The notes beneath the pieces are model-generated. The model saw nothing but the letters and a program-made list of their open reading frames with translations. It ran no database searches and was not told the DNA's origin. From positions 1 through 16,873 of the forward strand of contig JBNJDT010000034.1 of assembly GCA_051745145.1 (NCBI GenBank): 16,873 bases of DNA. Reading direction: 5' to 3'. This DNA is from Elusimicrobiota bacterium (GTDB taxonomy: Bacteria > CG03 > SLGR01 > JAGXOG01). Of the stretch, positions 1,275-16,591 are shown in pieces. Position numbers and translations under genes: made by a program. Within the stretch, counting starts at the first letter, position 1; every line of letters starts with the position of its first letter.

Positions 1275-1759
1275 ATTTTTATTCTCCGGAGTATAAAACT
1301 GTAAATTATCATAATCAACACTGTGTATAACATTAACAATCCGGCCGTTATATTTGGCACCCGGCTTATTAATAAAGCAGTAAACCCCAAAGTTCCAAAA
1401 CCGGCGACTATGCCGCTAAACCAGAATAAATCGGCCCGGAATGAAAAATTTCCCGTTCCCCGACCGGTTACATAAACTGTCCAAATTACCGCTAAAGTAT
1501 GGAAAATTCCCAGCTCTCCTGAGGGAATAACCCCGAATAATAAAGCTGACCATATAACCGTAAGTACCAATAATTCTCTGCGGTCCAGATAATCAAATAA
1601 AAAATAATTAATTATACCCCCGCCCAATACTGCTGATAACCCGGTTATAATCGATATAGCAGGCTCCAAGCCGTAATATATAAAACCAAGCAAGGGAACT
1701 ACCCCCGCTCCCCGGGAAAATACTGTCTGTATACCTTTAATGAAGTTTGTTTTTTGCAT
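1271..1759 (-). CDS. Highly divergent RnfE-like integral membrane protein (no cysteines)
   Basis: Sits in the rnfE slot. FIKGI...GAGVVPLLG aligns with RnfE F.NG.....LGLCPLLA, and LGIFHTLAVIWTVYVTGRG aligns with RnfE LGIFIPLIVVNCIILGRAE. Confidence 0.6.
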   Translation of the reverse strand: MQKTNFIKGIQTVFSRGAGVVPLLGFIYYGLEPAISIITGLSAVLGGGIINYFLFDYLDRRELLVLTVIWSALLFGVIPSGELGIFHTLAVIWTVYVTGRGTGNFSFRADLFWFSGIVAGFGTLGFTALLISRVPNITAGLLMLYTVLIMIIYSFILRRIKI

Positions 1760-2192
1760 CTTGAATGGCTTCCAGTAAGCCCTCGCTTGACTGTGTCGCT
1801 CCGCTTACCGCATCAATGTCGGTTGTCTGATTATCTATGATTCGGGGAATAATTTCCCCCCGGACCTTATTCCAGTATTTGCTTATCTCCCGGGACTCAA
1901 TAACCTCAATATCTGTAATAACCGGCGAGCTTCCCGGTCCCCTATTTTCAAAAGTAACTTCTACTATTATCTTCCCGGCAAACCCCTGGCCCGTTCCTTT
2001 TTTGACTACATCTTTTTTTAATCCGGGGGAAGGGTCTTCTTTTTCTACAGTTCCCTTAGAAACACCGCCCTTTTTTTGTTGTTTTTCCTGTGCTTTTTCG
2101 TGACCCGGACTCTTTTTCACAGCAGTATTTTTCTGTGATGATATAATAAAAGCTACCGCCAAAGACAATATTATAACAATAATTTTTCTCAT
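1737..2192 (-). CDS. Membrane-anchored FMN-binding-domain protein in the RnfG position
   Basis: N-terminal signal/anchor helix, Lys/Glu/Pro-rich linker, then an FMN_bind-type domain (GTGQGFAGKIIVEVTF...ITDIEVIES.E...DIDAVSGATQSS) with an intact [S/T]GA[T] ApbE flavinylation motif. Confidence 0.85.
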   Translation of the reverse strand: MRKIIVIILSLAVAFIISSQKNTAVKKSPGHEKAQEKQQKKGGVSKGTVEKEDPSPGLKKDVVKKGTGQGFAGKIIVEVTFENRGPGSSPVITDIEVIESREISKYWNKVRGEIIPRIIDNQTTDIDAVSGATQSSEGLLEAIQDAKNKLH

Positions 2193-2941
2193 ATATTTTC
2201 CACTATACTTCCAACTAAAGCACCGGCCAATATTCCCAAAACCCCAAAAATAGAAATTGCAATACCCGTAACCAGGCCGGTAATTCCCTTATCCTTATTT
2301 TGCAATGGAAGAACTCCGGGATAGGAAAGCAATAAACTTCCCCACAGGAAAAGAGGCAGATAATTGTTAAATTCCGCCCAGCCGGAAAAAATTAACTTTG
2401 TTATTAAAAATCCCAGCGCTATAAATAATATAAAATAGAGATTAACCCTTTTTCTAAAGATTAGATATATTATCCCTGCCAGATATAAATAAACTGTAAT
2501 GCCAAAATTATCGGGCCCGAACGAATTAATATATTTCATCAAAAGTAACGGCGCTATAATTACCGGTTTAAACGGGGTCACCGGCGGCCCTTTAAATATT
2601 ATTTCATATATTATAATCGATAATAGCACCGCCCCCCCTACAATAACAAACCTATTTGTTCCCGTTACGGACAGCCTGTACCAGACCATAAGAAATATTA
2701 AAATTCCGGTGACTGCAGATTGCAAAATTTTTACTGTAATCTTTTTCTTTTTAAAATAACCTGTTATTCCAAAAGTAAATGCAGATATAATTAAAATCCC
2801 CAGGAATTCAACTCCCTGGCCAGTTAAAAATAACCGGTAACCCAAAGCCGGCAGCAGAGCAATCAATAAATCAGTCCATACGTATAACTCCTCGCGAGAT
2901 TTATGGGCAAAAGGAGGTAACCCCACCATAAACGTATTCAT
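2189..2941 (-). CDS. rnfD: Divergent, shortened RnfD-like membrane protein (about 250 aa)
   Basis: Start re-assigned to the ATG at 2941, which overlaps the rnfC TGA stop as ATGA. The N-terminus MNTFMVGLPPFAH.....WTDLLIALLPAL matches RnfD 'SSPH.H......M.DV.IAL.PA'. AVTGILI, IFKGPPVTPFKP (cf. LFGG.G.N.FNPA) and AGIIYLIFRKRV (cf. GG.YL..RK.I) also match. Confidence 0.7.
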   Translation of the reverse strand: MNTFMVGLPPFAHKSREELYVWTDLLIALLPALGYRLFLTGQGVEFLGILIISAFTFGITGYFKKKKITVKILQSAVTGILIFLMVWYRLSVTGTNRFVIVGGAVLLSIIIYEIIFKGPPVTPFKPVIIAPLLLMKYINSFGPDNFGITVYLYLAGIIYLIFRKRVNLYFILFIALGFLITKLIFSGWAEFNNYLPLFLWGSLLLSYPGVLPLQNKDKGITGLVTGIAISIFGVLGILAGALVGSIVENI

Positions 2942-3918
2942 TCTAAATACCATCCCGGACATAAAAACCCGCACAATCCACATCCGATACACCCGTCTAC
3001 TTTAGAAAAAGGAATAAATCCCCGGCCGTTTTTAAAAATTTTAAGGATATGGGGGCTTTCCAGATATTGGGGGCAAACTTCTATACATTTTCCGCACCCG
3101 ATACACCCGTCTAATTTACTGCTGTAATTATTTAGTATTATTAAATTATCAAAATTACCGGCCCGTAAATCTTCCATGGATTTTACCGCCTGTCCGGACA
3201 GCAAACCGTTCTTTACAACAAATTTACCGGTACCCCCTATCTTATCTATTAACTCCCTGGCTACGGTATTTTTATTAACCTTAAAAAGGTGGTTTATTTT
3301 TTCATAATTTAAAATCACATATTCATTTTCATCGGTTTCAGAATAGTCTATAAATCTGTAAAGTTTAATTAATTTTTCTATTGCTACCACCAGATTCCCC
3401 CTTTTTCCCGGAAAATAATTATCTCTCTTTTTTATCCCGTATATGTATTTCCATAATATCTCATTAAATCCGAGAGGATACCGGTTCTTCTCCTCTTTAA
3501 GAAAGATATTAGGAGACCGTCGAATTTGCTCATCCAGTTTATTTATAAATTCCATATGCCGGGGAACTATTAACCGGCCGTAATCCGCGGCAACAGCTTT
3601 CATGATTAACTTCAACCCGCCGATTATTTGAAAATTGAAAAGCTCCAGGAGTATGTTTCTATAACCGATAAAAGGATACTTAACCATCCCGTTTCCAGTC
3701 ACCCGGCCGCATCCCACTTTCTCTATTTTTAGTAATTCCCTTTCAGTAAAAACACCGGACTGAATAATTTTTTCTCTTAAGTAGTCTCTATCTTCCGTGT
3801 GAAACTTAGATGGCGGCCGTTTTTTGTCTTTTCCGGATTTTTCTTTCTTTTCGCGGTAATCTACCAAATCCATCCGGGGTATATTTATTCTAACTTTCCC
3901 TCTTAAACTTTTTAACAT
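2938..3918 (-). CDS. rnfC: Divergent RnfC-like protein with a C-terminal 2x[4Fe-4S] domain
   Basis: YPLGFNEILWKYIYG (cf. YP.G.EK.LI....G), GTGKFVVKNGLLSG (cf. GG....I.GGPMMG), and CIGCGKCIEVCP plus CIGCGLCGFLCP. First gene of the C-D-G-E-A-B order. Confidence 0.7.
   Translation of the reverse strand: MLKSLRGKVRINIPRMDLVDYREKKEKSGKDKKRPPSKFHTEDRDYLREKIIQSGVFTERELLKIEKVGCGRVTGNGMVKYPFIGYRNILLELFNFQIIGGLKLIMKAVAADYGRLIVPRHMEFINKLDEQIRRSPNIFLKEEKNRYPLGFNEILWKYIYGIKKRDNYFPGKRGNLVVAIEKLIKLYRFIDYSETDENEYVILNYEKINHLFKVNKNTVARELIDKIGGTGKFVVKNGLLSGQAVKSMEDLRAGNFDNLIILNNYSSKLDGCIGCGKCIEVCPQYLESPHILKIFKNGRGFIPFSKVDGCIGCGLCGFLCPGWYLE
2981..3118. repeat. 24-bp near-identical direct repeat (22/24; 16-bp exact core) encoding both ferredoxin motifs of the RnfC-like protein
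   Basis: catccgatacacccgtctacttta (2981-3004) versus cacccgatacacccgtctaattta (3095-3118). These encode K-V-D-G-C-I-G-C and K-L-D-G-C-I-G-C. Confidence 0.85.
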
Positions 3919-4817
3919 AATTGGAGGACCTTTTCTATTGTGTTAGTATGTATATCCACTGTATCTTTTAACTCTTTTGATTTTCCGCCCCCCAATAATA
4001 CGGACACCGAAATATTATTTGAAATTGCTTCGTTTAATACAATTTCATCTCTTTTAATAAAATCTCTCTTTTCCAGCTTTAAATCCCCCAAAAGGTCTTC
4101 TTTATAACTACAGGCTCCGGCTATATATATTATAATATCCGGTTTTAAAAAATCTAATTCTTTTTTCAGCTGTTTTTTCAACATATTATTATAAGTCTTA
4201 CCGGAAATATTTTCACTTAAAGAAAAACCCCGGTCCGGGGTTTCCTTAATTATAGGATAAAACTCTTTAGAGTAAAAAGAGAGCACTCTGATATTCTTAT
4301 TGGGCTTTAATATGCTTATAGTACCGTCTGCCTGGTGTAGGTCGCAATCTAAAATCAAAACCCGGCGCCCATCACGGGCTAATTTTAACGCCCCGTAAGC
4401 CACATCGTTAAATACTGTAAAAGCACCGGGTCTATTTTTGTGGGCGTGGGTGAAGCCTCCTCCAATAAATACGCTGCCTCCATCTTCTAAAGCCGCCCGG
4501 CCGCTAAGATAAACCCCGGTGCAGGAGCTAAGAGCAACTTCAGCCGCTTTTTTAGGATATTTAAGTTCTGTCTGAATCTGCTCGGCAACCGACAAATCGC
4601 CGTTTAAGGCTCTATAAATATAATCTTTTGTATGAATACAACTAAGTTCCTCCGGGGAAAGAGAAGGAGTAATTTGAAAAGATTCCCGGCTAAAATATTC
4701 TTTTTCTAACAGCCACTTTTTTATTAATCTGTATTTTTCAAAAGGGTAAGAAGCAGAATCGGAAAGTTCTTCGTAACCGGGATTGTAAAAAATTTCGGAT
4801 TTAACTGACTTCGGCAA
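3912..4817 (-). CDS. Histone deacetylase/AcuC-family protein with substituted catalytic residues
   Basis: HDAC-fold motifs: YPFEKY, L..IHT.DYI, GGGFTHA, GAFTVFND, LDCDLHQADGT, PD.I.Y.AGAC...EDLLG and LGGGK. TTG start. Confidence 0.85.
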   Translation of the reverse strand: MPKSVKSEIFYNPGYEELSDSASYPFEKYRLIKKWLLEKEYFSRESFQITPSLSPEELSCIHTKDYIYRALNGDLSVAEQIQTELKYPKKAAEVALSSCTGVYLSGRAALEDGGSVFIGGGFTHAHKNRPGAFTVFNDVAYGALKLARDGRRVLILDCDLHQADGTISILKPNKNIRVLSFYSKEFYPIIKETPDRGFSLSENISGKTYNNMLKKQLKKELDFLKPDIIIYIAGACSYKEDLLGDLKLEKRDFIKRDEIVLNEAISNNISVSVLLGGGKSKELKDTVDIHTNTIEKVLQLC

Positions 4818-4826
4818 ATTATTCTG

Positions 4827-5489
4827 CTACCAGATATAACGAACTTTGCCGCCCAGGGTAACCCCCAGGAGACTGCCGGCCGGAGTATCGGTGGTCATAA
4901 AACTTTTTAAGCCCACAAACCAGTCCCAGTTGGGATTCATGGGAAAAACTTCCATGCCCATTTTTTGCTGAAACCCAAAAGCTGTCGTCACGGGGTGGGA
5001 AATAGTCTCTCCCGGTTCAGAGCCGGGGGTGGCCCTGTGATTACCCAGGGGTTCTTTACTGTAAAATACGTGATACATTCCGATTCCTCCTCCTATATAA
5101 AAAGCATCGTAAATCGTATATATAAAATTTACGGTCATCGGAACAACATTTAATTTTACAGATATATTTTTTCCGGCGTCATCTAAAACATCCTGGGAAT
5201 AACTCTGTATATCGCCTTCTATTTCCTCTTCGGTGTAATTTACTTCTTCAAGCGATCCAAACATATATCCAAGCCCTAACTCCAAAGATTTCGAATCTAC
5301 CTCCCGAATGCCGGTTATCATAAGAGCGGGAGAAAGAAGTCTGCCGCTTTGAGCGGCATCACCTACCGCAAGACCTAACTCGCCGCCAAGCTCCCAATCT
5401 TCCCAGGAAGCGGCCCGGGCAATATTGAAAAAAGTAATTACTACAGCTACCAGAAATGTAAATATTCTAAAATACCGGTATCTTCTCAT
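4827..5489 (-). CDS. Outer-membrane beta-barrel protein (OmpW/OmpA-transmembrane-like)
   Basis: Signal peptide ending ARA-A. Amphipathic strands such as VVPMTVNFIY, FYIGGGIGMY and WDWFVGLK. C-terminal aromatic signature GGKVRYIW. Confidence 0.7.
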   Translation of the reverse strand: MRRYRYFRIFTFLVAVVITFFNIARAASWEDWELGGELGLAVGDAAQSGRLLSPALMITGIREVDSKSLELGLGYMFGSLEEVNYTEEEIEGDIQSYSQDVLDDAGKNISVKLNVVPMTVNFIYTIYDAFYIGGGIGMYHVFYSKEPLGNHRATPGSEPGETISHPVTTAFGFQQKMGMEVFPMNPNWDWFVGLKSFMTTDTPAGSLLGVTLGGKVRYIW

Positions 5490-6397
5490 CCTTTCTCTTT
5501 TAAAAGGTCTTCTAAGATTGCCTGCTGGATATGCATTCTATTTTCCGCCTGTTCAAATACATAGGAGTGTTCTCCGTCCATGACCTCATCGGTAATCTCC
5601 TCGCCCCGGTGGGCGGGCAGACAATGCATTACCATGACATCGGATTTGGCAACTTCCAGCAAATCTGTATCCACCCGATAGGAAGAAAATTTTTCCAGTC
5701 TCTGGGACTGTTCCTGTTCATCTCCCATACTAACCCATACATCGGTGTATATAGCATCCGCATCTTTAGAAGCTTCAACCGGATCGTTTAAAATTTCTAT
5801 ATTGGGGTTCTTCTTTTGGGCCGGGCTGATAATTTCATCGGCGGGTTCAAAATTTTCCGGTGAAGCAACGCTCAGCTGAAAGCCGAAAATCCCGGCTGCA
5901 TTTATGAGGGAATTACATACATTATTACCGTCCCCTATAAACGAAACTTTTAAATTCTCAAAATCAAATCCCTTGACCTCTGCTATGGACATAACATCGC
6001 CCATGGCCTGACAGGGATGTAAAAGATCAGTCAAACCGTTAATAACCGGAACTCCGGCAGCTTTTCCCATCTCTATGACATCCCGGTGGGAATAGGTTCT
6101 GATCATTATGGCATCCACATATCCGCCCAGGGTTTTAGAAGTATCGTAAATAGTCTCACCTCTGGAAAGCTGTAGAGTTTCGCTTCCAAGGTAAAGAGCA
6201 TCGCCGCCCAGCCGTTTCATAGCTATATGAAAAGAGACATTTGTCCTGGTGGACGGCTTTGTAAATATCATAGCCAGATTTTTATTCTTGCCCGCTTTCG
6301 GGGTCTCACCATTTTTAAGTTCAATACCTCTTTTTAAAAGTCCAGTCAGGTATTTTTCACCGTGATTCCTTAAATCAATTAAATTATTTTTATTCAT
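5486..6397 (-). CDS. argF: Ornithine carbamoyltransferase
   Basis: Canonical motifs F.KPSTRT, NGLTD..HPCQ, GDGNNV, YTDVWVSMG and HCLPAHRG, plus AENR. Confidence 0.95.
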   Translation of the reverse strand: MNKNNLIDLRNHGEKYLTGLLKRGIELKNGETPKAGKNKNLAMIFTKPSTRTNVSFHIAMKRLGGDALYLGSETLQLSRGETIYDTSKTLGGYVDAIMIRTYSHRDVIEMGKAAGVPVINGLTDLLHPCQAMGDVMSIAEVKGFDFENLKVSFIGDGNNVCNSLINAAGIFGFQLSVASPENFEPADEIISPAQKKNPNIEILNDPVEASKDADAIYTDVWVSMGDEQEQSQRLEKFSSYRVDTDLLEVAKSDVMVMHCLPAHRGEEITDEVMDGEHSYVFEQAENRMHIQQAILEDLLKEKG

Positions 6398-7595
6398 TAT
6401 CCTTTAACACCGCATCTACATCTTTCAAACCGTTCCCGGTCAGCAAACAAACTGCCGGAGAAAGCTTTCCAATATCTTCCCCGCTGCCGGCCAGTTTTCT
6501 AAGGCCCGCAACGCTGGTTACTCCCGCAGGTTCGGCAAAAACCCCGGTATTCTCAGCCAGATAAGATATATTATCTATGATTTCTTTATCCGGCACCCTT
6601 ACCGACCGGCCGCCGGTTTCTAAAACAGACCGGACTGCAGCTATACCGTCCCTGGGCTGGTCCACGGCAATGGAATCGGCAACAGTTGAAGCCTGCACCA
6701 TCTCCATCTTAATATCCCGGGGACTGATATTTTTATCATCTATATTTTCCAGGGTTCTGGTAACAGCATCTGAGTTGGCGCTTTGAACTGCTATAATTTT
6801 GGGCATCTTTTCTATAAGATCCAGTTCTTTTAAATCCCGGAACCCTTTCCATACCCCGCTTATTATATTACCGTCACCCACAGGTACAAAAACTGAACCC
6901 GGAGCTTTGTAACTTAACTGCTCCCATATTTCAAAAGCAACAGATTTTTTTCCTTCTCTGGTATAAGGATTATATCCGGTACACCGGTTAAAATAATTAT
7001 TCTCCAGAGAGTCGGACACGCAAAGATCATAGGCCTCATCATAAGTACCCGAGACCAATCGCACATCGGCTCCGTAGACTCCCAGCTGGGCTATTTTAGC
7101 CCGGGGTGCTGACTCGGGCACATATATTATAACTTCCACACCAGATGCCGCTCCCATACAGGCCCAGGAGCATCCGGCATTTCCCGTTGACGCACAACTT
7201 ACCACCTCAATACCTTTCTCCCGGGCCACGGCCATAACCACAGAACTGGCCCGGTCTTTAAATGAAGCTGACGGCAGGCGGGTATCATCTTTTAAATACA
7301 CCTTATCCAGTCCCGTCTGTTCAGCTATATCTTTATTGTCATACAACGGGGTAAGCGACATATCCAGAGCAGGTATAAACCTGCTATCCTCAAAAGGGAA
7401 AAGAGGCATGTAACGCCATACATCCCGCTGGGGATTGTTCTTTAAGGCGGGTACTGAAAATATTCTTTTTATATCGTCGTAATCATAGGTTACATCCAGA
7501 TTACCAGAACAATCTTTGCAGGTGTACCCGTCATAATCCGGGGAATGCTGTTTTCCGCAGACCAGACACTCAAAACCGGTCATAAAATTCGACAT
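6390..7595 (-). CDS. Threonine-synthase-like fold-type II PLP enzyme with N-terminal CxxC...CxxC zinc ribbon
   Basis: SFKDR (PLP lysine), CASTGNAG, NP...EG.K, VPVGDGN, EPAG and LTGNGLK. N-terminal CLVC...CKDC. Substrate uncertain, so no gene symbol is given. Confidence 0.85.
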   Translation of the reverse strand: MSNFMTGFECLVCGKQHSPDYDGYTCKDCSGNLDVTYDYDDIKRIFSVPALKNNPQRDVWRYMPLFPFEDSRFIPALDMSLTPLYDNKDIAEQTGLDKVYLKDDTRLPSASFKDRASSVVMAVAREKGIEVVSCASTGNAGCSWACMGAASGVEVIIYVPESAPRAKIAQLGVYGADVRLVSGTYDEAYDLCVSDSLENNYFNRCTGYNPYTREGKKSVAFEIWEQLSYKAPGSVFVPVGDGNIISGVWKGFRDLKELDLIEKMPKIIAVQSANSDAVTRTLENIDDKNISPRDIKMEMVQASTVADSIAVDQPRDGIAAVRSVLETGGRSVRVPDKEIIDNISYLAENTGVFAEPAGVTSVAGLRKLAGSGEDIGKLSPAVCLLTGNGLKDVDAVLKDNE

Positions 7596-7596
7596 A

Positions 7597-8538
7597 TTAC
7601 TTAGTAAAAGTAGTGCCGGTTTTACCCGTAGCGCAATCCTTTAAATTAGCAGGTGAAGTAACTACTGCTTTTTTGCCGCCGTCTTCTATATACCGGAGGA
7701 TAGCCTTAATTTTAGGCAGCATACTGCCCTCGGCAAAATGGCCTTCATCAATATACTTTTTAGCTTCTTCAACAGAAAGGGAAGATAATTTTTTCTCATC
7801 ATCCTGTCCGAAATTTAAGCATACATTATCAACAGCAGTTGAGATTATAAACATATCCGCATCCAGGCGGGTAGCCAGCAGGGCAGAAGCATAATCTTTA
7901 TCAATTACAGCGGGTACCCCTTTTAACATGCCGTCATCCCGCTTGTAAACCGGTACGCCACCGCCACCTACGCCGATAACAGTATAACCGCTCTTAGCTA
8001 AAGCACCGATGGCATCTTCTTCGAGTATCTGCTTGGGATCCGGAGAGGGTACTACCCTACGGTAACCGCGGCCGGCATCTTCAACTATATTCCAGCCCTC
8101 TTCACTCTCTTTTTCCTTAGCTTTTTTTTCATCCATAAAGCTCCCTATGGGCTTGGAAGGATTTTCAAAAGCGGGATCGTCTTTATCTACCAGAACTCTG
8201 GTTATTACTGTTGCAGCTTCCTTCTGAATTCCCCTATTATCGAATTCGTTTTTTAAGGCCTGCTGGAACAGGTAACCTATGGCGCCCTGAGTATCCGCCC
8301 CGCAAGAATCCAAAGGAACAGGATGTATCCCTTCTTTTTCTCCCAGTTCCGAACGTCTCAGAATAAAACCCACCTGCGGGCCGTTTCCATGGGTAATTAT
8401 AACATCCCATCCGTCTTCTATAAGATCCACAATATGTTTGGAAGTCTCCACTACCGCCGAATACTGGTCGGGCACACTCTGGTGCTGGGCATCCTTAATA
8501 AGTGAATTTCCACCAACTGCGATTACTGCTAAAGGCAT
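7597..8538 (-). CDS. arcC: Carbamate kinase (ArcC/YqeA)
   Basis: AVGGNS, THGNGPQVG, GADTQG.IGY, DPAF.NP.KPIG, EDAGRGYRRVVPSP, GGGGVPV, AVIDKD and GSMLPK. GGAGG Shine-Dalgarno upstream. Confidence 0.95.
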   Translation of the reverse strand: MPLAVIAVGGNSLIKDAQHQSVPDQYSAVVETSKHIVDLIEDGWDVIITHGNGPQVGFILRRSELGEKEGIHPVPLDSCGADTQGAIGYLFQQALKNEFDNRGIQKEAATVITRVLVDKDDPAFENPSKPIGSFMDEKKAKEKESEEGWNIVEDAGRGYRRVVPSPDPKQILEEDAIGALAKSGYTVIGVGGGGVPVYKRDDGMLKGVPAVIDKDYASALLATRLDADMFIISTAVDNVCLNFGQDDEKKLSSLSVEEAKKYIDEGHFAEGSMLPKIKAILRYIEDGGKKAVVTSPANLKDCATGKTGTTFTK

Positions 8539-8583
8539 ATTTAAATCCTCCGTTTTTTAACTTTCATTTACTGCCAACTAAAT

Positions 8584-9606
8584 TTATTCTGCCATGGTTA
8601 AAGCCATTATAGCTTTTTGGACATGAAGTCTGTTTTCAGCTATATCTACAATAATAGACCGGGGCCCGGACGCAACTTCATCAGTAACTTCATGATTTCT
8701 GTCCACAGGCATAGGGTGAGAAAATACAGCGTCATTAGTTATTTGCATTTTTTCCTCATCACAAATCCAGTCTTCATATTTTAGGGCTTTTTCTATCTCT
8801 TCCTCTTTGCGGAGCTTTCCGCCGCGATAGGCGTCTTTACTCATCCAGTTTCTGGAATAAACTATATCCGCATCTTCGTAAGCTTCGGCCGGATCGTTGG
8901 ATACTGCAAACTCAGTACCGTTTTCCTGGCAATTTTTCTTAGTCCACTCTAAAACTTCATCGTCAAGTTCATAACCTTCGGGATGGGCTACTCTGACATT
9001 CATTCCCATTCTCGAGTTTATTAACATACTCTCGTGTACCGAGCAGTGTGAACGGGCCAGGGCACCGTGTCCCCAGGCATGAACAATAGTCTTGTCTTTT
9101 AAATCTTCACTTACGTGTTTGCGATATCCCATTACATCGGCAAGTCCCTGACAGGGATGAAACCTATCGTGAGCCATGCTTATTATAGGCATATCGGCAT
9201 ATTTAGCATAATTTTTAAGCAACTGATCGCCCAGTCCGTACTCTCCGATTTTATCTTCCAATATTCTTATGCCCAAACCAACTGCATAGCGGGACATAAC
9301 TTTAGCGGCGTCTTCTACTGTTTCTCCTGCCGAATCTTTTGTTTTTAGTCTCATGGCAGAAGGTTCTAAGAATAAGGCGTGTCCCCCTAATTCTGTAGCC
9401 GCAATTTCAAATGACTGCCTGGTTCTAACCGAAGGGTTATAAAAAAACATTAAAAAACTTTTACTATTTAAAATATTTGTAAACTCCGGAGCAAATCTTT
9501 TTTTCTGCATCTCTTCAGCCAATTCTAAAACTTCTAAAAGTTCTTCCTTTGACCAATCCTGTGTGGTAATTAAATCTTTACCGTAATATTTTGATTTTCC
9601 TTCCAT
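8584..9606 (-). CDS. Divergent carbamoyltransferase of the YgeW/AOTCase-like group (second paralog)
   Basis: NPSVRTR, HPCQGLAD, AWG, ADIVYSRNW, HPMPVDR and AENRLH. Lacks the OTCase DxxxSMG ornithine loop. AGGAGG Shine-Dalgarno upstream. Confidence 0.85.
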   Translation of the reverse strand: MEGKSKYYGKDLITTQDWSKEELLEVLELAEEMQKKRFAPEFTNILNSKSFLMFFYNPSVRTRQSFEIAATELGGHALFLEPSAMRLKTKDSAGETVEDAAKVMSRYAVGLGIRILEDKIGEYGLGDQLLKNYAKYADMPIISMAHDRFHPCQGLADVMGYRKHVSEDLKDKTIVHAWGHGALARSHCSVHESMLINSRMGMNVRVAHPEGYELDDEVLEWTKKNCQENGTEFAVSNDPAEAYEDADIVYSRNWMSKDAYRGGKLRKEEEIEKALKYEDWICDEEKMQITNDAVFSHPMPVDRNHEVTDEVASGPRSIIVDIAENRLHVQKAIMALTMAE

Positions 9607-9640
9607 TTTTCCTCCTATATAACATGTATACTCTATTGAA

Positions 9641-9681
9641 AAGCTACGGCGCGTAAATTTAAGATTACGCGCCGATAGCTT
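9641..9681 (-). terminator. Intergenic GC-rich stem-loop (terminator-like or mRNA-stabilising) between the two carbamoyltransferase genes
   Basis: aagctacggcgcgtaa (9641-9656) and ttacgcgccgatagctt (9665-9681) pair as 16 bp with one bulge. On the minus strand it ends in only a short U tract (TTTTC). Confidence 0.65.
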
Positions 9682-9695
9682 CTACTTTTCTTAAA

Positions 9696-10772
9696 TTACA
9701 GCCGGCCGCCCATTAACATTGCCATAATTGCTTTATGGGCATGTAACCGGTTTTCAGCTTCGTCTATAACTACAGACTGAGATCCGTCAATTACCGGATC
9801 CGTAACTTCCTGGCCTCTGTCAGCGGGCAAACAATGCATATATTTACCGTTTTTGTTTACCAGATTCATCTGCTTTTCAGTTGTCATCCAATCTTTATTA
9901 GCCTCGTTTAGTTCTTCAGCTTTTTCCAGGTCCTGTTCTTTAACTGTTTTATTATTCTCATCTGTATAATTAAAACAGGAAGCAGCTCCCCAGGATTTAG
10001 GATAAACTATATCCGCATCTTCGAAACCTTCGTCAAAATCATCGGTGATTCCAAAAGAACCATTTTCCTGATCGGCAAAACTTTTGCAGGTTTCTATGAC
10101 ATTAGGATCCAGTTCAAAACCTTCCGGACGGGCCAGAGTCACATCCATCCCCATCTTTGAGGCGGCAAGTATTACGCTCTGGGGTACAGCCCGCGGTTTT
10201 TCAATTGAACCGGAATAGGCCCAGGACATAGTCAGTTTTTTGTTTTTAAACCCGCCCATCTTTTCTTTTATAGTCATAAGATCAGCAAGGGCCTGGGTGG
10301 GATGATATTTATCACACTCCATATTAATCACGGGTATATCAGCCCATTCAGCAAACTCTTTAATGGTCTCATTTGCAAATCCGTAAATCCAGTGAGCCTT
10401 AGGTCCATACATTCTTATGGCTATAGCATCACCTACTCTACTGAGAATCCTCGAAACATCGGAAATTCTCTCTGTTTCATAAGGTATTTCAAAACCTTTT
10501 CTGGCCGGGGTGTAAGTTTTACCCGGTTCCAGATCAACATGATAACCACCTAACTGCTGTATTCCGGCCGCAAATGTGCACCGGGTCCTGAGAGACTGAT
10601 TAAAAAATATAGTAAATAAAGTCTGCCCTCTTAAAAGATCATCCATGGGTTCTTTCATGGCATATCTTCTTTTAAGTTCCAGACCTACATCAATCATGGT
10701 CTCCCATTCCTCTTTGGAAAAATCCAAAGTTGCATCAATCCAATCTCTTCCAAAAAATCGATTAGTCTTCAT
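9696..10772 (-). CDS. ygeW: YgeW-like carbamoyltransferase
   Basis: SLRTR, HPTQALAD, KKLTMSWAYSGSIEKPRAVPQS (cf. E. coli YgeW-type WAYSPSYGKPLSVPQG), DIVYPKSW, YMHCLPAD and EAENRLH. AGGAGG Shine-Dalgarno at 10781-10786. Confidence 0.8.
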   Translation of the reverse strand: MKTNRFFGRDWIDATLDFSKEEWETMIDVGLELKRRYAMKEPMDDLLRGQTLFTIFFNQSLRTRCTFAAGIQQLGGYHVDLEPGKTYTPARKGFEIPYETERISDVSRILSRVGDAIAIRMYGPKAHWIYGFANETIKEFAEWADIPVINMECDKYHPTQALADLMTIKEKMGGFKNKKLTMSWAYSGSIEKPRAVPQSVILAASKMGMDVTLARPEGFELDPNVIETCKSFADQENGSFGITDDFDEGFEDADIVYPKSWGAASCFNYTDENNKTVKEQDLEKAEELNEANKDWMTTEKQMNLVNKNGKYMHCLPADRGQEVTDPVIDGSQSVVIDEAENRLHAHKAIMAMLMGGRL

Positions 10773-10833
10773 CGATTATTCCTCCTTTTATTTGTTCTTA
10801 ACTTATTCCCAAGTTTCTATAATTTTAATGATG

Positions 10834-10863
10834 ATAATAACAAATTTAAAGTATCACTGTCAA
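10834..10863 (-). promoter_or_regulatory. Sigma70-type internal promoter upstream of ygeW
   Basis: Minus strand: TTGACA (10863-10858), 18-nt spacer ending TGT, then TATTAT (10839-10834). This is a perfect -35 and an extended TGn -10 with a 5/6 match, about 60 nt before the ATG. Confidence 0.7.
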
Positions 10864-11847
10864 TTACTTAGGTACAGTAAACTTTTTCTCTTTGCTAAAA
10901 TTTAAATTTTCAAACCAGTCTTTAATACAACATCTTACCTTATAGTCCCCGGACGGTAAACCCTTATAATCAAACACTAAATCATAAGGCGCCGAATCCA
11001 CCGGATACCCTATATCTTTCCAGCCATTGCCATTATTAATTTCCAAAGTTACTTCCGTTATATAATTGCCGGTTACTTTTGTATTCACTACCATACGGGT
11101 ATCCACGACAGGATGCTGTCTTAAATCTGTTATCTCCACCGAACTCTCCGGGGAACCTTTTTTAACCATTTTTATAGCGAGCCCCGGTTGAAAAAAATTT
11201 ATCCCGGTAGTCTCCCCCCCTTCTTTTACGAGAAAAGAGTTTTCTCCTTTTTCTTCTCCTATGCCCCCTGCAAGTACAGGGGCTGTTTTAACACTGTTAA
11301 GTTCTTTATCCGGACTCCACAGATGAATATAGTTAAAATCCTGTTTATTAATTTCCTCTTCGGAAACCTCAACCCAGAACCATTTGCTTTCTCTTACATA
11401 CTCGTCCGCCCGGGTAGGAGAACCCTCCCTGGGAATCTTATCAGTGGTAGTTAACAGTTTAGCCTGGGGACGTTGTTCTACAGAACCGGATAATCCTATG
11501 TGAATTCTATAGGGACCGTCTGACGGTTCTATATCAGATTCCTGTTCTCCCAAAATTTTCTCTATCTGTTTCTCTGTTTTAGCTCTACCCAGTTTTGCCC
11601 CTATAAAAAATCTATCATACTCTTTTGTTTTTGCCCGGGGAACTTTATTTATCCATCCGTGCCCATAACCGACATACCAGTTTCCCGACCAGCCGCCATT
11701 GGCAAAAAGATTATATTCGGCGGGCGTAGGGAGCCCCGATATAAAATCAGTATACTTATCATCCGTGCACCCGGACCCGGTTATTACCGAAAGCATTATA
11801 CCTGTTCCAATGAAAATTAAAATTTTGAATTTATTTAACTTTTTCAT
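10864..11847 (-). CDS. Hypothetical exported protein / probable lipoprotein with a C-terminal Ig-like beta domain
   Basis: Basic N-terminus, hydrophobic stretch and a lipobox-like GSGC. Aromatic/Gly motif YNLFANGGWSGNWYVGYGHGW. C-terminal APY.....Y..LP.G.Y.V.....D...N pattern typical of bacterial Ig-like domains. Confidence 0.65.
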   Translation of the reverse strand: MKKLNKFKILIFIGTGIMLSVITGSGCTDDKYTDFISGLPTPAEYNLFANGGWSGNWYVGYGHGWINKVPRAKTKEYDRFFIGAKLGRAKTEKQIEKILGEQESDIEPSDGPYRIHIGLSGSVEQRPQAKLLTTTDKIPREGSPTRADEYVRESKWFWVEVSEEEINKQDFNYIHLWSPDKELNSVKTAPVLAGGIGEEKGENSFLVKEGGETTGINFFQPGLAIKMVKKGSPESSVEITDLRQHPVVDTRMVVNTKVTGNYITEVTLEINNGNGWKDIGYPVDSAPYDLVFDYKGLPSGDYKVRCCIKDWFENLNFSKEKKFTVPK

Positions 11848-12905: not shown

Positions 12906-14219
12906 TTACTCTATATTTTCCCAAACTTTTTTAGCAGTTTCCCTAGCCCGGGCTAAAACTTCCTCCTCTTTAATTTTTAGAATTTTCTTATGTCTCATCA
13001 GAATCTCACCGTCACAAATTGTACTATCTACTGAGTAATCTCCCATTCCAAAAAGAAAGTGTCCCAAAAAATTATCCTTATTGATAGGGGTAGCCGGATC
13101 GTAGTCTATGGTAACTATGTCGGCATAAGCTCCCGGTTTTAATTTACTGTTATCCCATCCCGTAATTTTATCTAAAATTTTGGGATTATTATTTAACAGC
13201 ATATCCGGAACTTCCGTAAAAGCTACCGCCGGATCCTGGTATTGATGCCTGGCCAGCAAAAAAGCAGTCCGGGCCTGACTTCTTACATCCGAACTCATCC
13301 CGTCCGTACCTATTCCCACATCTAAGCCTTCCGAATACATATCCAGTATTTTAGAATATCCGACAGCGTTATTCATATTACTCTCGGGATTATGAACTAC
13401 CGAAGAACCGGCCGCTTTTATCAGCTCCCTTTCGGACTGGTCTATATGTATGCAGTGTATTAATAAACTTTTTTTATTTAATGCCCCGGCTTCATGAAAT
13501 CTTTCTATAACTGATTGTCCGTATTTTTCGCGGGTTCTCTCCTGATCAGCAATGCCTTCTGCAGCGTGAACATGAATTCCGGCATTAAATTTTTCTGCCA
13601 GATGAACACTTTTTTCCAGTGTCTCCTGATCAACCGTAAAAGAGGCATGTAACCCAACCATGCCCTTTATTTTGTCAAAATCCTTTCTTAAAAAACGTTC
13701 ATTTTCTTCCAGGCCCTGTTCTCCTTTACCGAACCGGTCCGAGGCGCCCAGACATAAAACACCTTTTATTCCCATCTGTTCAACTGCCTTACTTATTTCA
13801 TCAAGACTGCCTATCTGATACGATTGACTCTCATGATGATCTATTACGGAAGTAACCCCGCACTTTATACTTTCTATGATAGGAACTATAGCTGAATAAT
13901 AAATAGCTTCCCTGAAAAGAGCATCGTCAAGTTTCCACCACATATTCTCAAGCACCTGGTCAAAATTACCGGTGGGCTCTGACGGGGCCCATCCCCGGGC
14001 AAAAGTTGAATAAAAGTGATGATGGGTATTTACAAAAGAGGGCATAATTATCTTTCCCGTAGCATCTAATACATCCGCGCTGTCGTATTTTCTTTTTATC
14101 TGAGATAATTCGCCAATAGCTTTTATTTTTTTTCCCTCTACTACCACTGCCCCGGGATTAAAAATTCTATTGTTTTCATCCAACGTCACCACTGTTCCGC
14201 CTTCGATTCTTACTGTCAT
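12906..14219 (-). CDS. ssnA: SsnA-family amidohydrolase
   Basis: NTHHHFYSTFARG, LE.MWWKLD, GVT.VIDHH, GLHASFT, HVHAAE, HNPESNMNNAVG and GTDG. AGGAG Shine-Dalgarno upstream. Confidence 0.9.
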   Translation of the reverse strand: MTVRIEGGTVVTLDENNRIFNPGAVVVEGKKIKAIGELSQIKRKYDSADVLDATGKIIMPSFVNTHHHFYSTFARGWAPSEPTGNFDQVLENMWWKLDDALFREAIYYSAIVPIIESIKCGVTSVIDHHESQSYQIGSLDEISKAVEQMGIKGVLCLGASDRFGKGEQGLEENERFLRKDFDKIKGMVGLHASFTVDQETLEKSVHLAEKFNAGIHVHAAEGIADQERTREKYGQSVIERFHEAGALNKKSLLIHCIHIDQSERELIKAAGSSVVHNPESNMNNAVGYSKILDMYSEGLDVGIGTDGMSSDVRSQARTAFLLARHQYQDPAVAFTEVPDMLLNNNPKILDKITGWDNSKLKPGAYADIVTIDYDPATPINKDNFLGHFLFGMGDYSVDSTICDGEILMRHKKILKIKEEEVLARARETAKKVWENIE

Positions 14220-14274: not shown

Positions 14275-15231
14275 TTACTTTTTGTTGATTCTTTTTTCGA
14301 CACTATTTAAAGCCCGGCGGGCTGCTCTTTTTACCCGGGTGTCATAGTCCTGAACAGCTTGTTCTAAAAATACTTTAACATCTTCATCTCCAACAAGCCC
14401 CATAACCCTGCAGGCTTTTATTTTTATTTGAGGATCCGAGGATTTTATAGCACTGATAGCTTCGCTCAACCCGGCTTCTATTCCCATTTTTGCCAGGCTT
14501 AAGGCCGCTGTAACTCTTACCATAGGAGAGCTGTCTGAAAGAAAATCTTTTAAAGTTTCTCGACCTTCTACAGCCTTTAATTCTCCCAGAGCATTGAGGA
14601 GCTGGACTTTAACTACTTCAGATTCTTCTAATTTCAACAATTCCACAAGAGAAGGAACTAACTGTTTAAAACCTCTTTTTGCTATAACCTGTACCGCGCT
14701 TTTGCGAACTCCCGCATTTACGTCTTTTAATTTAGCTTGCAAAATCTGTTGAATTCTCTCCACACTGCCATTTTCCGTTAACTTACCCAAGTTAAAAATA
14801 GCTTTCTGTCTTACAATAGGATTATTAGACTCTGCCTTTTCTATGATCTTTTCCCGTACAGTTGGCGTAGAAAAATTTATCGCCGCCCCCATTGCTTCAA
14901 TCTGTAAATTAATTTCACCCTGATCCATAATTGACAGTAGCGTAGAAATTGCCGAAACGTTTTTTATATCCCCCAGACTTTTTACAGCCACTCTCCTCAC
15001 CCGCCTGTCAATATCCTTATTTAAAGCAATCCTTTTAAGAGCATCAATGACTTTTTTGTTATTATAATCCCTAAGTTCCCGGGCGGCTGTCATCTGTCTA
15101 TTTCTATCTGAACTATACAGCCTTTCTAAAAGCATCTGTACCCTGGGGGTTAAATTATTTTCTTCAGTCCACCCCTTGAAACTTATTGATAATAATAAAC
15201 AACCGGCTAATATTATGTACTTAACTCTCAA
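14275..15231 (-). CDS. Exported HEAT/PBS-lyase-like repeat protein
   Basis: Signal-peptide-like N-terminus, then roughly 31-aa helical repeats (VRRVAVKSLG, VRQKAIFNLG, VRKSAVQVIA, VRVTAALSLA, VKRAARRAL). TTG start overlapping the upstream gene by 11 nt. Confidence 0.85.
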   Translation of the reverse strand: MRVKYIILAGCLLLSISFKGWTEENNLTPRVQMLLERLYSSDRNRQMTAARELRDYNNKKVIDALKRIALNKDIDRRVRRVAVKSLGDIKNVSAISTLLSIMDQGEINLQIEAMGAAINFSTPTVREKIIEKAESNNPIVRQKAIFNLGKLTENGSVERIQQILQAKLKDVNAGVRKSAVQVIAKRGFKQLVPSLVELLKLEESEVVKVQLLNALGELKAVEGRETLKDFLSDSSPMVRVTAALSLAKMGIEAGLSEAISAIKSSDPQIKIKACRVMGLVGDEDVKVFLEQAVQDYDTRVKRAARRALNSVEKRINKK

Positions 15232-16591
15232 TACCTGCTTTTTTCCGTAAATTTCTTGATATAGTATTGGCTTTCTTAGTCAATTTCTCTGTATCAATAT
15301 CTACCAGTTTAAAATTTTTAACCCTCACTTTACCGTTGACAATAACCGTATGCGCAAAATGAGAAGCCCCCGAAAAAACCAGGGCCCCTAAATAATCACT
15401 GTTAGAGCCGGCAAAATCTACTCTGTCTGTATCAAATACCGCAATATCTGCAGCCTTGCCTTCTTTTAAAACTCCTATATCCCTCCGTCCCAGAACATCA
15501 GCGCCTCCCCGGGTGGCCATTTTTAAGACATCAACTGCACTCATAGAATCCACCCCTGATTTATAGCGGGCTACTAGCATAGCCAGCCGGGTTTCTCCAA
15601 GCATATCCGAGGTATCATTCGATGCGGAGCCATCGACGGCAATAGAAACATTTACTCCGGCATCTAACATTTTTCTTATGGGAGCTATTCCCGAACCTAA
15701 ACGTAAATTAGAAGAAGGACAATGAGCCACGCCGCTGCCGGTATCCGCCAGCCTTTTAATCTCCTTATCATTTAAATGGACACAATGGGCAAACCATACG
15801 TCTTCTCCCAGCCAGTTAACTTTCTCCATATAGGGCAGGGGCCGCATACCCGTCTGTTCCAGACAAAATTCTTCTTCATCTTTGGTCTCCGCAAGATGAG
15901 TATGCATATATACGTTATTTTCTCTGGCCAGCCGGGAGGTATCTTTCATTATCTGCTCAGTTACTGAAAAAGGTGAACAGGGTGCTAATACTATCTGACA
16001 CATAGAAAATTTCGAAGAATCATGATATTGATTTATAACCCGTTCGGACTCCTGTAAAATTTTATCGTCATCCTGTATTACGCTGTCCGGGGGAAGGCCG
16101 CCATCGGATTCTCCAAGCGACATACTTCCTCTGGTGGGATGAAATCTTATACCCATTTCCCGGGCCGCCTCTATTTCTATATCTATTAAATTGCTTTTTT
16201 GAGATTCCGGATAAAGATAAAGATGATCGCTGGTAGTAGTACAACCGGTAAGGAGCAACTCCGCCGTACCCACTCTGGTACTGACATCCACCGCTTCATC
16301 ATCAATATATTTCCATACGTTATAAAGATATTTAAGCCACTTAAAAAGTTTTGCATCCTGGACCTGTTTTAAATTCCGGGTTAATGTTTGATACAAATGA
16401 TGGTGGGTATTTATCATACCCGGAATTACCACTTTCCCTCTTCCATCTATCTCTTCATCAGCCTTTTGGGTAATATTTCCTATTTTTTTTATCTTATTAC
16501 CCTCGATTAAAATACTTTTATTCTTTAAAACCGTATTTTTATCGTCAAATGTTGCAATAACCGAAGCATTTTTAATTACAATAGTTTTCAT
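15221..16591 (-). CDS. Amidohydrolase of the 8-oxoguanine deaminase / AtzB-like subfamily
   Basis: NTHHHLYQTLTR, LF.WL..LY, GCTT.SDHLY, RGSMS.GE..GGLPP, LAPCSPFSV, HTHLAET, AHCVH, HCPSSN.RL.SG and VDGSASND. GGAG Shine-Dalgarno upstream. Confidence 0.85.
   Translation of the reverse strand: MKTIVIKNASVIATFDDKNTVLKNKSILIEGNKIKKIGNITQKADEEIDGRGKVVIPGMINTHHHLYQTLTRNLKQVQDAKLFKWLKYLYNVWKYIDDEAVDVSTRVGTAELLLTGCTTTSDHLYLYPESQKSNLIDIEIEAAREMGIRFHPTRGSMSLGESDGGLPPDSVIQDDDKILQESERVINQYHDSSKFSMCQIVLAPCSPFSVTEQIMKDTSRLARENNVYMHTHLAETKDEEEFCLEQTGMRPLPYMEKVNWLGEDVWFAHCVHLNDKEIKRLADTGSGVAHCPSSNLRLGSGIAPIRKMLDAGVNVSIAVDGSASNDTSDMLGETRLAMLVARYKSGVDSMSAVDVLKMATRGGADVLGRRDIGVLKEGKAADIAVFDTDRVDFAGSNSDYLGALVFSGASHFAHTVIVNGKVRVKNFKLVDIDTEKLTKKANTISRNLRKKAGIES

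Follow-up and report, generated by a model that had tools for sequence, protein, structure and literature searches.

A 16,873-nucleotide stretch of DNA from an Elusimicrobiota bacterium, referred to throughout as the window and constituting one complete contig (C34) of a 1.8-Mb, 92.6%-complete genome, contains between positions 8584 and 10772 exactly two open reading frames (ORFs), both on the minus strand. Each encodes a carbamoyltransferase in which the PF02729 and PF00185 domains are both present (E 1e-35 to 1e-36), and the two proteins, here named CT_A and CT_B, are 34% identical (121/355, E 3e-70). Judged by their sequences, they represent two old, separately conserved families that are relatives of Escherichia coli YgeW outside its own family, and neither is an N-acetylornithine carbamoyltransferase (AOTCase). 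Both families have complete carbamoyl-phosphate sites, both are linked to carbamate kinase and to purine genes, and across gene clusters the second transferase and the hydrolase YgeY follow a swap pattern. Apart from a remark on Nocardioides discussed below, we found neither these two families nor a version of the pathway with two transferases in the literature, the supplements of both pathway papers excepted.

The superfamily signature is present in CT_A as S60-L-R-T, R120, H157-P-T-Q and H313-C-L-P, and in CT_B as S59-V-R-T, R114, H150-P-C-Q and H297-P-M-P, the last of which departs from HxLP at the Leu. Around these shared elements CT_A carries WAYSGSIEKPRAVPQS and YPKSW together with SLRT, HPTQ and HCLP, and CT_B carries WGHGALARSHCSVHES and YSRNW together with SVRT, HPCQ and HPMP. 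An earlier note, made from the DNA letters, had drawn attention to two adjacent divergent paralogs, to the differences in the substrate loop, in YPKSW versus YSRNW and in HCLP versus HPMP, and to the retained S.RT and HP.Q motifs; all of these are present in the translations, and the differences are real in that they occupy fixed positions in a 20-sequence alignment of each family.

Neither protein reaches the cut-off of any NCBIfam model. For both, the best of these hidden Markov models (HMMs) is N-acetylornithine carbamoyltransferase NF003384, with 266.8 bits for CT_A and 263.4 bits for CT_B against a cut-off of 288, and the YgeW models NF005538 and TIGR03316 (cut-offs 453 and 500) give 178.7 and 167.9 bits for CT_A and 125.5 and 122.2 bits for CT_B. 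As benchmarks, reference AOTCases above the cut-off score 295-531 bits, and true YgeW proteins of the same phylum 620-643. Identity to E. coli YgeW is 33% for CT_A and 29-30% for CT_B. A sequence search of the PDB ranked Xanthomonas AOTCase first (E 1.6e-53 for CT_A, 3.2e-59 for CT_B), YgeW (3Q98) later (6.4e-45 and 3e-29) and the Bacteroides N-succinylornithine enzyme (2FG6) later still (1.4e-29 and 3.2e-25). AlphaFold models, with a predicted local distance difference test (pLDDT) score of 81 for CT_A and 89 for CT_B, were compared with solved structures: for CT_B, AOTCase is the top structural match by every measure, with a template-modelling (TM) score of 0.87-0.89, and for CT_A it has the best TM-score (0.81) and root-mean-square deviation (2.6-2.8 A), with the ornithine carbamoyltransferase (OTCase) of Pyrococcus furiosus first by E-value. 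Homologues among the 120 best listed come from uncultured bacteria in many phyla and are 64-80% identical to CT_A and 65-94% identical to CT_B, with mean column identities of 80% and 76% in the 20-sequence family alignments. Four further OTCase-type carbamoyltransferases (P0366, P0382, P0326 and P0390) carry fused N-terminal Clp_N domains; one of the four has a T2SSE-like stretch as well.

Phylogenetic analysis separated both proteins from the known enzymes. The careful tree, whose 53 rows were selected from the 106 rows of a quick tree that agrees with it, comprised the window's three carbamoyltransferases, E. coli YgeW, ArgI and PyrB, sequences above the AOTCase and OTCase cut-offs, true YgeW genes of the phylum and homologues from 80 loci fetched with CT_A patterns, with no N-succinylornithine carbamoyltransferase (SOTCase) reference. 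No true AOTCase above the cut-off was found in the phylum or in five other genomes searched, and the AOTCase references came from another class and from a representative library. To our knowledge the allFGH genes are unrelated to this carbamoyltransferase family, and oxamate transcarbamylase is for that reason absent from the tree. These are the genes reported to encode that enzyme in E. coli (PMC11326118). The knotted branch is supported at 100/98 and within it an AOTCase clade of seven rows above the cut-off (100/100) excludes CT_A and CT_B, which join YgeW in the non-AOTCase remainder (100/94). There the CT_B clade (99/96) and the CT_A group (99/93) both fall outside the YgeW clade, which unites the E. 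coli protein with three Elusimicrobiota sequences (100/100), and outside the wider clade of compact relatives of about 326 aa in which YgeW is nested on a long branch (99/97). The branching order of these three groups is weakly supported (59/17). A marginal sequence with 295 bits on the AOTCase model (P0246) stands at the base of the CT_A group.

We mapped the active sites by aligning CT_A and CT_B with an AOTCase-family sequence, E. coli YgeW and others, and trusted the mapping because the alignment reproduces the YgeW residue numbers published in PMC4581275. The carbamoyl-phosphate set is complete in both proteins (SxRT, the beta-4 Arg, HPxQ, the H-x-(L/M)-P turn and the ENR Arg). In AOTCase, W77, E144 and K252 are described as binding the substrate, and E92, N185 and K302 as distinguishing the enzyme from SOTCase (PMC4581275); given in the order AOTCase, CT_A, CT_B and YgeW, the equivalents are W77/T88/L87/I99, E92/T100/G94/G102, E144/E152/A145/Q160, N185/K192/S186/K203, K252/K259/R252/K270 and K302/E322/E306/E344, such that CT_A keeps two of the six AOTCase residues and CT_B none. 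For YgeW itself, PMC4581275 proposes Q160, S200, K203 and K270 as acceptor residues and describes a short 80's loop together with additional helices at both termini. CT_A has three of these four acceptor residues (S189, K192 and K259, with E152 at Q160) and CT_B none (A145, R185/S186 and R252). For the SOTCase markers, defined from the Bacteroides fragilis type as W75, H176, R178, R278 and a Pro at the N185 position, the Trp and Pro sites hold T and K in CT_A and L and S in CT_B in an alignment lacking a SOTCase sequence.

The loops also separate the two families. CT_A's WAYSGSIEKPRAVPQS resembles YgeW's WAYSPSYGKPLSVPQG. The knotted structural group is marked by a trefoil knot, a proline-rich loop and an extended 120's loop; CT_A has a KPxxVPQ loop, and CT_B has a loop of equal length with no proline and an invariant R185-S186-x-C188-S189. 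Both models match knotted AOTCase best by TM-score. Invariant positions across the 20 sequences of each family alignment are S189, K192, P193, V196-S199, K259 and H313-P316 in CT_A, and W178, G181-L183, R185, S186, C188-V190, R252 and H297-P300 in CT_B. HPMP is unchanged in 20/20 CT_B sequences, and deeper relatives have HCMP (a Thermotogae locus) or HCLP (an Asgard locus). CT_A further has a long, highly conserved 80's loop (K85, Y87-A90, Y98 and T100-R102) that YgeW and OTCases are without, and lacks a YgeW-type C-terminus. Complete carbamoyl-phosphate sites combined with differing but fixed acceptor positions suggest that both enzymes are active and that their second substrates differ.

Set against its closest characterized relatives, the pair shares with E. 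coli YgeW (YTCase, 3Q98) both its superfamily and its place in the non-AOTCase half of the knotted branch, and YgeW is likewise encoded with a carbamate kinase (YqeA) and SsnA. CT_A retains equivalents of YgeW S200, K203, K270, D334 and E344 and a near-identical WAYSxSxxKPxxVPQ loop. In contrast to YgeW, both proteins are approximately 40-55 residues shorter and without its C-terminal sequence, CT_A has a Glu at Q160 and the long 80's loop, CT_B has Ala, Ser and Arg for Q160, K203 and K270, and the window's cluster holds two enzymes where E. coli has one. With Xanthomonas campestris AOTCase (3KZC and others) they share a similar length and an extended 120's loop, and CT_A keeps the E144 and K252 equivalents, but W77, E92, N185 and K302 are missing in both, CT_B is also without E144 and K252, and their setting is a catabolic cluster with carbamate kinase and not an arginine-synthesis cluster. 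The earlier note's description of both proteins as YgeW-type thus stands in part: they belong to the YgeW side of the knotted branch and CT_A keeps the lysines equivalent to K203 and K270 and a YgeW-like loop, and the gene context of YgeW is present as well, with a carbamate kinase gene directly downstream in a catabolic setting; yet both score below the YgeW cut-offs and lie outside the YgeW clade. Its proviso that CT_B could be a standard N-acetylornithine enzyme does not survive the HMM score, the tree and the absence of all six AOTCase residues checked, and CT_B is probably not a standard N-succinylornithine enzyme either. Nor does CT_B look inactive, given its complete carbamoyl-phosphate site, a highly conserved family and its presence on RNA-library contigs.

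The two families recur together across distant lineages. Of the 80 loci, 50 carry a CT_A-clade gene and around 30 a compact YgeW-like gene instead; CT_B is also present in 33 of the 50 (34 with locus L039, missed by a 48% threshold), nearly always directly downstream. These pair loci belong to Elusimicrobiota, Cloacimonadota, Chloroflexota, Bipolaricaulota, Thermotogota and Eisenbacteria, together with Thor-, Bathy- and Promethearchaeota records. Carbamate kinase accompanies the pair in 29/33 loci, xanthine-dehydrogenase subunits in 14/33 and a pyridoxal phosphate (PLP) enzyme resembling threonine synthase (ThrC) in 8/33. Pfam annotation of seven pair loci revealed adenine deaminase, molybdenum hydroxylase subunits and SsnA-like amidohydrolases beside the pair; adenine deaminase, SsnA and a PydA-like reductase adjoin it in L021, L031 and L049, and L008 has the set of CT_A, CT_B and carbamate kinase alone. 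In the 21-kb L049 locus (Promethearchaeota, an Asgard pair locus) genes for a PydA-like flavoenzyme and a tungsten-type aldehyde:ferredoxin oxidoreductase adjoin SsnA (L049:3092-6716), and no xanthine-dehydrogenase gene was seen in that locus. Within the phylum of the window, 20 of 26 genomes, the window's included, contain two adjacent AOTCase-like matches, and in all 12 loci fetched (one being the window) the pair was verified as CT_A plus CT_B. An even sample of 401 Chloroflexota genomes had CT_A in six, CT_B in seven, both in six and the two adjacent in five, with CT_B in none of the 17 genomes carrying the compact YgeW-like type. Ten genomes with CT_A and no adjacent CT_B were checked, and CT_B was elsewhere in four of them.

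The compact carbamoyltransferases of about 326 aa (L048-L080, e.g., L069:9983-10960 and L062:9989-11014) have the exact YgeW residues Q, K and K without the YgeW extensions, and sit with YgeY, carbamate kinase, a ThrC-like enzyme and SsnA. Their clusters, from Chloroflexota and other phyla, share with the window SsnA, the kinase, the PLP enzyme and 8-oxoguanine-deaminase-like genes.

In the window the pair lies within a tightly packed series of long ORFs, all on the minus strand (Table 1). Transcription would run from an amidohydrolase of the 8-oxoguanine deaminase family through a HEAT-repeat protein, SsnA, a short YgeY-like M20 hydrolase and a 327-aa protein to CT_A and CT_B, and then through carbamate kinase, a threonine-synthase-like PLP enzyme and a canonical OTCase to a 220-aa protein without a family, a histone-deacetylase-fold protein and Rnf-like electron-transfer genes. 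The OTCase, a third carbamoyltransferase of the operon that the earlier note's finding lacked, has the motifs FTKPSTRT, DVWVSMG and HCLP, and is the only one found in the genome, whose three PF00185 matches all lie in the window. The same five genes (CT_A, CT_B, kinase, PLP enzyme and OTCase) occur in L014:9460-14712.

Table 1. Genes and sequence elements of the window, listed in the direction of transcription
Feature	Position	Strand	Basis
8-oxoguanine deaminase family amidohydrolase	15221..16591	-	NF006055 643 bits (cut-off 532)
HEAT-repeat protein, role unassigned	14275..15231	-	PF13646, E 7e-37
SsnA, ring-opening amidohydrolase	12906..14219	-	NF005540 511 bits (cut-off 444); TIGR03314 476 (cut-off 455.5)
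Short YgeY-like M20 hydrolase, 357 aa	11831..12904	-	NF009555 290 bits (cut-off 321); 30% identity to E. coli YgeY
Predicted lipoprotein, 327 aa, no family	10864..11847	-	N-terminal signal ending ...ITGSGC
Promoter-like site (TTGACA, 18 nt, TATTAT, with TG), just upstream of CT_A	10834..10863	-	consensus scan, 11/12 matches
CT_A, 358-aa knotted-branch carbamoyltransferase, YgeW-like acceptor pocket, long conserved 80's loop	9696..10772	-	ORF, Pfam, alignment, tree
Stem-loop, 10 pairs, between CT_A and CT_B	9647..9674	-	folding energy -27.7 kcal/mol
CT_B, 340-aa carbamoyltransferase, complete carbamoyl-phosphate site, remodelled acceptor pocket	8584..9606	-	ORF, Pfam, alignment, tree
Carbamate kinase	7597..8538	-	NF009007 412.5 bits (cut-off 266); TIGR00746 386 (cut-off 358)
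Threonine-synthase-like PLP enzyme	6390..7595	-	NF006050 253 bits (cut-off 303)
Canonical ornithine carbamoyltransferase (OTCase)	5486..6397	-	NF001986 391 bits (cut-off 306); TIGR00658 377 (cut-off 281)

The carbamate kinase is 49% identical to E. coli YqeA and is the only carbamate kinase match in the genome, and we presume that it takes carbamoyl phosphate from both CT_A and CT_B. The PLP enzyme is neither the genome's real ThrC, on contig C26 (308 bits on TIGR00260 versus 177 for the window's protein), nor its YgeX orthologue, on contig C28. In loci that extend 5 kb or more to each side, referred to below as well flanked, it neighbours the kinase in 13/14 loci with a single compact enzyme and in 6/17 pair loci, and probably represents a ThrC recruited for a late step of the ureide pathway; other cluster copies include L069:12027-13178 and L021:19391-20638, the former of which, at 309 bits against a cut-off of 303, receives the NCBIfam name threonine synthase. 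The 327-aa protein gave no Pfam match even at E 1, and a protein-atlas look-up returned its own Elusimicrobiota cluster plus beta-sandwich-like leads below 0.9. Copies 40-55% identical occupy the same position beside CT_A in six related Elusimicrobiota loci, in four of which the short YgeY-like form lies on the far side of the gene. We take the ...ITGSGC ending of its signal to be a lipobox, and an apparently exported product is odd inside an operon of cytoplasmic enzymes.

Between CT_A and CT_B, the stem-loop may be a terminator-like element or a stabiliser; it is kept in a genome of the same genus (L086), and is missing from loci of other phyla in which 1-13 nt separate the two genes. An Rfam search of the whole window at E <=0.1 returned no matches, with no purine or other riboswitch seen. 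RNA evidence comes from contigs of four RNA-library runs of one study (X1-X4), holding 74-93% of sampled words. The X2 (5400-10813) and X4 (5862-10697) contigs bridge CT_A to the OTCase gene, X1 (6724-10802) bridges CT_A to the PLP gene, and X3 covers CT_B to the PLP gene (7010-9679) with CT_A on a separate contig (9811-10808), its break falling at the stem-loop. The X1-X3 contigs stop at 10802-10813 with adapter sequence, 21-32 nt downstream of the promoter-like site. Such contigs prove neither a transcript nor its level, their depth cannot rank genes and the patchy cover upstream of 10813 is not evidence of silence; with all four runs stemming from one study, they are therefore a weak hint only that CT_A to OTCase forms an expressed unit.

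Downstream of the OTCase, positions 178-5489 (minus strand) encode the 220-aa and histone-deacetylase-fold proteins and RnfC-like, FMN (flavin mononucleotide)-binding RnfG-like and RnfB-like polyferredoxin proteins, and three ORFs there (267, 162 and 173 aa) are without a significant family match. These genes might be the pathway's missing electron-input or reductase system, a candidacy they owe to the genome search, which found nothing above the YgfK cut-off and no clear PydA-type reductase. The remaining genes of the 2,8-dioxopurine pathway sit on other contigs. The end of C41 and the start of C2 together carry a YgfM-like gene and an orthologue of XdhD (48% identical), the latter in two pieces (C41:12293-12997 and C2:1-2187), near SelD-like, XdhC, MobA-like and YqeC genes, and the two contigs are probably adjacent in the genome. 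A D-hydantoinase is encoded on C26 and the YgeX orthologue (47% identical, 528 bits) on C28; the D-hydantoinase gene stands between the best threonine synthase gene and an aspartate decarboxylase gene (C26:5884-9113), apart from other purine genes.

The setting is that of anaerobic purine breakdown, for which SsnA is a reported marker of the reductive urate route (PMC12507026). There, 2,3-diureidopropionate has two ureido groups, one of which YgeW takes as carbamoyl phosphate and the other of which YgeY hydrolyses (PMC12507026; bioRxiv 10.1101/2025.04.24.650524; PMC12990295), and the pathway account given in the earlier note agrees with these three sources. The preprint obtained diureidopropionate and 3-amino-2-ureidopropionate through carbamoylation of diaminopropionate, and in PMC12507026 albizziin served as a commercial standard. 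The E. coli pair of YgeW and YqeA is described as making ATP from diureidopropionate (10.1101/2025.04.24.650524), and the same preprint draws the analogy with the arginine deiminase pathway, where OTCase and carbamate kinase follow the same logic of ureido phosphorolysis and then ATP formation by the kinase; the difference is that the operon's canonical OTCase is a separate gene here and that CT_A and CT_B are without the DxxxSMG ornithine loop. This transferase family is said to favour carbamoylation strongly, such that the catabolic direction needs the pull of a carbamate kinase or an anabolic transferase (PMC4016543). The operon holds both pulling enzymes.

We propose that CT_A and CT_B are two separate catabolic enzymes that phosphorolyse two ureido intermediates of purine breakdown and feed one carbamate kinase, a reading in which our belief and our doubt are evenly balanced; the two intermediates would probably represent both groups of 2,3-diureidopropionate. 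Under this proposal, the two would be different, catalytically competent transferases, most likely separate homotrimers, each cleaving with phosphate a different ureido intermediate of the anaerobic, SsnA-type 2,8-dioxopurine pathway, and the carbamoyl phosphate from both would pass to the adjacent kinase for ATP. CT_A could take the 3-ureido group, reading the 2-ureido group like an N-acyl group, because its pocket is YgeW- and AOTCase-like, and CT_B could take the remaining 2-ureido group, hydrolysed by YgeY in E. coli, because its pocket bears an arginine. The yield would then be up to two ATP per purine, compared with the one ureido group harvested in E. coli. The catabolic direction, substrates, regiochemistry, oligomeric state and ATP yield are predictions drawn from sequence.

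The main support for double phosphorolysis, one of the possibilities that the earlier note had raised, is the swap with YgeY. Counting an orthologue at 35% identity or more, YgeY is present in 10 of 14 well-flanked compact single-enzyme loci (one of which, L039, was mis-filed by the 48% threshold and is really a pair locus without YgeY), and in only one of 17 well-flanked pair loci, with weaker M20 genes in two more. In three compact loci without YgeY (L054, L057 and L060), the hydantoinase and YgeW-like genes flank a gene for a second carbamoyltransferase (L054:8931-9917, L057:8973-9926 and L060:1174-2127), which branches beside E. coli PyrB at the base of the tree, and in L075 and L108 an OTCase-like gene is paired with the compact enzyme. 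The arrangement in the first three resembles that of Nocardioides, where a pseudo-aspartate carbamoyltransferase beside a ygeW homologue was noted in 2013 (Barba et al. 2013, PMC4016543). They share with the window the presence of two adjacent carbamoyltransferases; the difference is that their second enzyme is close to E. coli PyrB and their first has the YgeW Q, K and K, whereas CT_A and CT_B both belong to other knotted-branch families. The pattern that recurs is two ureido-cleaving enzymes per cluster, either one transferase and YgeY or two transferases. The counts are descriptive and carry no test, as the loci are interrelated and were picked through CT_A patterns.

Several observations weigh against our proposal, beginning with this lack of independence among the locus counts. 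SsnA (at least 33% identity) and hydantoinase are each found in only 3/33 pair loci, and the regiochemistry of YgeW itself is disputed, being assigned to the 3-ureido group in the preprint (10.1101/2025.04.24.650524) and to the 2-ureido group in PMC12507026. The window's operon keeps a short YgeY-like M20 hydrolase directly upstream, which would be redundant if both ureido groups were phosphorolysed, and this short form stands beside the pair in eight genomes of the phylum, the window's included; the earlier note had likewise cautioned that a retained ygeY complicates double phosphorolysis. In eight phylum genomes two adjacent AOTCase-like matches coexist with a canonical module on another contig, in which true YgeY (509-588 bits) neighbours true YgeW (620-643 bits); one of these genomes is in the same genus and 100% complete, and the pair was verified as CT_A plus CT_B in six of the eight. 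Such coexistence implies that the pair is not simply a replacement and may serve another substrate, and the window's genome might hold a canonical YgeY-YgeW module in its missing 7%. Double phosphorolysis thus has the indirect support of the swap and is qualified by the retained hydrolase and the coexisting modules.

An extended version of the proposal takes the retained hydrolase into account. Here the pair would be a two-step phosphorolytic replacement of YgeW plus YgeY that doubles the ATP from ureido groups, the operon would be the sole source of carbamoyl phosphate for arginine, and the YgeY-like protein would act as an irreversible bypass when phosphorolysis stalls. We offer it tentatively, as a combination that is possible but doubtful as a whole. 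The genome contains argB, argC, argG and argH, whereas carB, pyrB and pyrF were not found in the 92.6% that is present, nor was a clear dihydroorotate dehydrogenase found in it, and the organism looks like a pyrimidine auxotroph. With the only OTCase found lying in this operon and no carB found, carbamoyl phosphate has to be supplied by the kinase or by phosphorolysis of ureides, on which arginine synthesis may depend. The possibility of a cryptic aspartate carbamoyltransferase, raised as no pyrB was found, was rejected, pyrF and a clear dihydroorotate dehydrogenase being likewise not found.

It is unlikely, though deserving of weight, that the two enzymes serve different pathways and share only the kinase, one acting on a purine ureide and the other on, e.g., the pyrimidine compound beta-ureidopropionate or the ureide of another amidohydrolase. 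The coexisting canonical modules and the strongly unlike acceptor pockets speak for such a division, as does the behaviour of CT_A on its own, which also counts against our proposal: six of the ten genomes with a non-adjacent CT_A showed no CT_B (genome completeness not given), four of these six also carry a compact YgeW-like enzyme, and lone CT_A genes have varied neighbours, which include other amidohydrolases, a luciferase-like (F420-type) enzyme and ABC transporters. Against a division, the pair is strongly linked in the fetched loci, six of the seven Chloroflexota genomes with either enzyme have both, the well-annotated pair loci indicate purines only, and the swap with YgeY fits one shared pathway.

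The earlier note had also considered a hetero-oligomer, in which CT_A and CT_B would form a mixed trimer or hexamer, each paralogue's 80's loop completing the other's site. Active sites in this enzyme family are described as receiving an 80's loop from the neighbouring subunit (PMC4581275), this loop is unusual and conserved in the CT_A and CT_B families alike, co-occurrence is strong, and the genes are 1-13 nt apart in 8 of the 25 pair loci listed, in several lineages. We nevertheless regard this as rather improbable, and it is without specific support and not obligatory for CT_A: the basic unit of every solved family member reviewed in PMC4581275 is a homotrimer, CT_B was missing from the six genomes above, the genes are unlinked in four other genomes and in G028, an unrelated gene is inserted between them in L007, and the stem-loop separates them in the window's genome and genus. 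In L014, four of the five proteins (CT_B, kinase, PLP enzyme and OTCase) share 62-75% identity with their counterparts in the window, CT_B 75%, against just 55% for CT_A, which suggests that CT_A alone may have been exchanged there, joining a divergent CT_A to a closer CT_B. Proteins of 628-2000 aa contained no CT_A-CT_B fusion and just two unrelated fusions, which is weak evidence in the same direction.

Handling of two enantiomers or close isomers of one ureido compound, arising from non-stereospecific ring opening, is less probable again. The stereochemistry of the pathway intermediates is described as unsettled (PMC12990295), SsnA is reported to give two products (PMC12507026), and an Asp/Glu/hydantoin racemase gene lies near the pair in L007; but the two SsnA products reportedly lead to a single diureidopropionate (PMC12507026), a racemase occurs in only one of seven annotated loci, and the pockets differ in charge and shape and are not mirror images (E/K/K versus A/S/R). 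We give very little credence to a synthetic role for one or both enzymes, using kinase-made carbamoyl phosphate for a carbamoylated product such as a variant of the arginine pathway or a solute, for although carB, pyrB and pyrF were not found while argB, argC, argG and argH are present, a canonical OTCase shares the operon and the best HMM and structure matches are to an anabolic AOTCase, neither protein reaches the AOTCase cut-off, clade or residue set, the OTCase already serves arginine synthesis, the pair is elsewhere in catabolic purine clusters, and the de novo pyrimidine route looks absent, leaving no need for a cryptic aspartate carbamoyltransferase.

The anaerobic urate pathway was solved only in 2025, and its two founding studies disagree about which of the two ureido groups is removed first. 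Two natural enzymes with different, fixed pockets would offer a direct means of probing both this regiochemistry and how much ATP purine fermentation really yields. The pair is widespread in uncultured anaerobes, including Asgard and other archaea, and its homologues are annotated at source as 'ornithine' or 'N-acetylornithine carbamoyltransferase', such that metabolic reconstructions may misread it as arginine synthesis and miss an energy-yielding purine route. If the extended version of our proposal is true, purine breakdown would feed arginine directly, and if both ureido groups are harvested, the pair would be of relevance to better urate-degrading probiotics.

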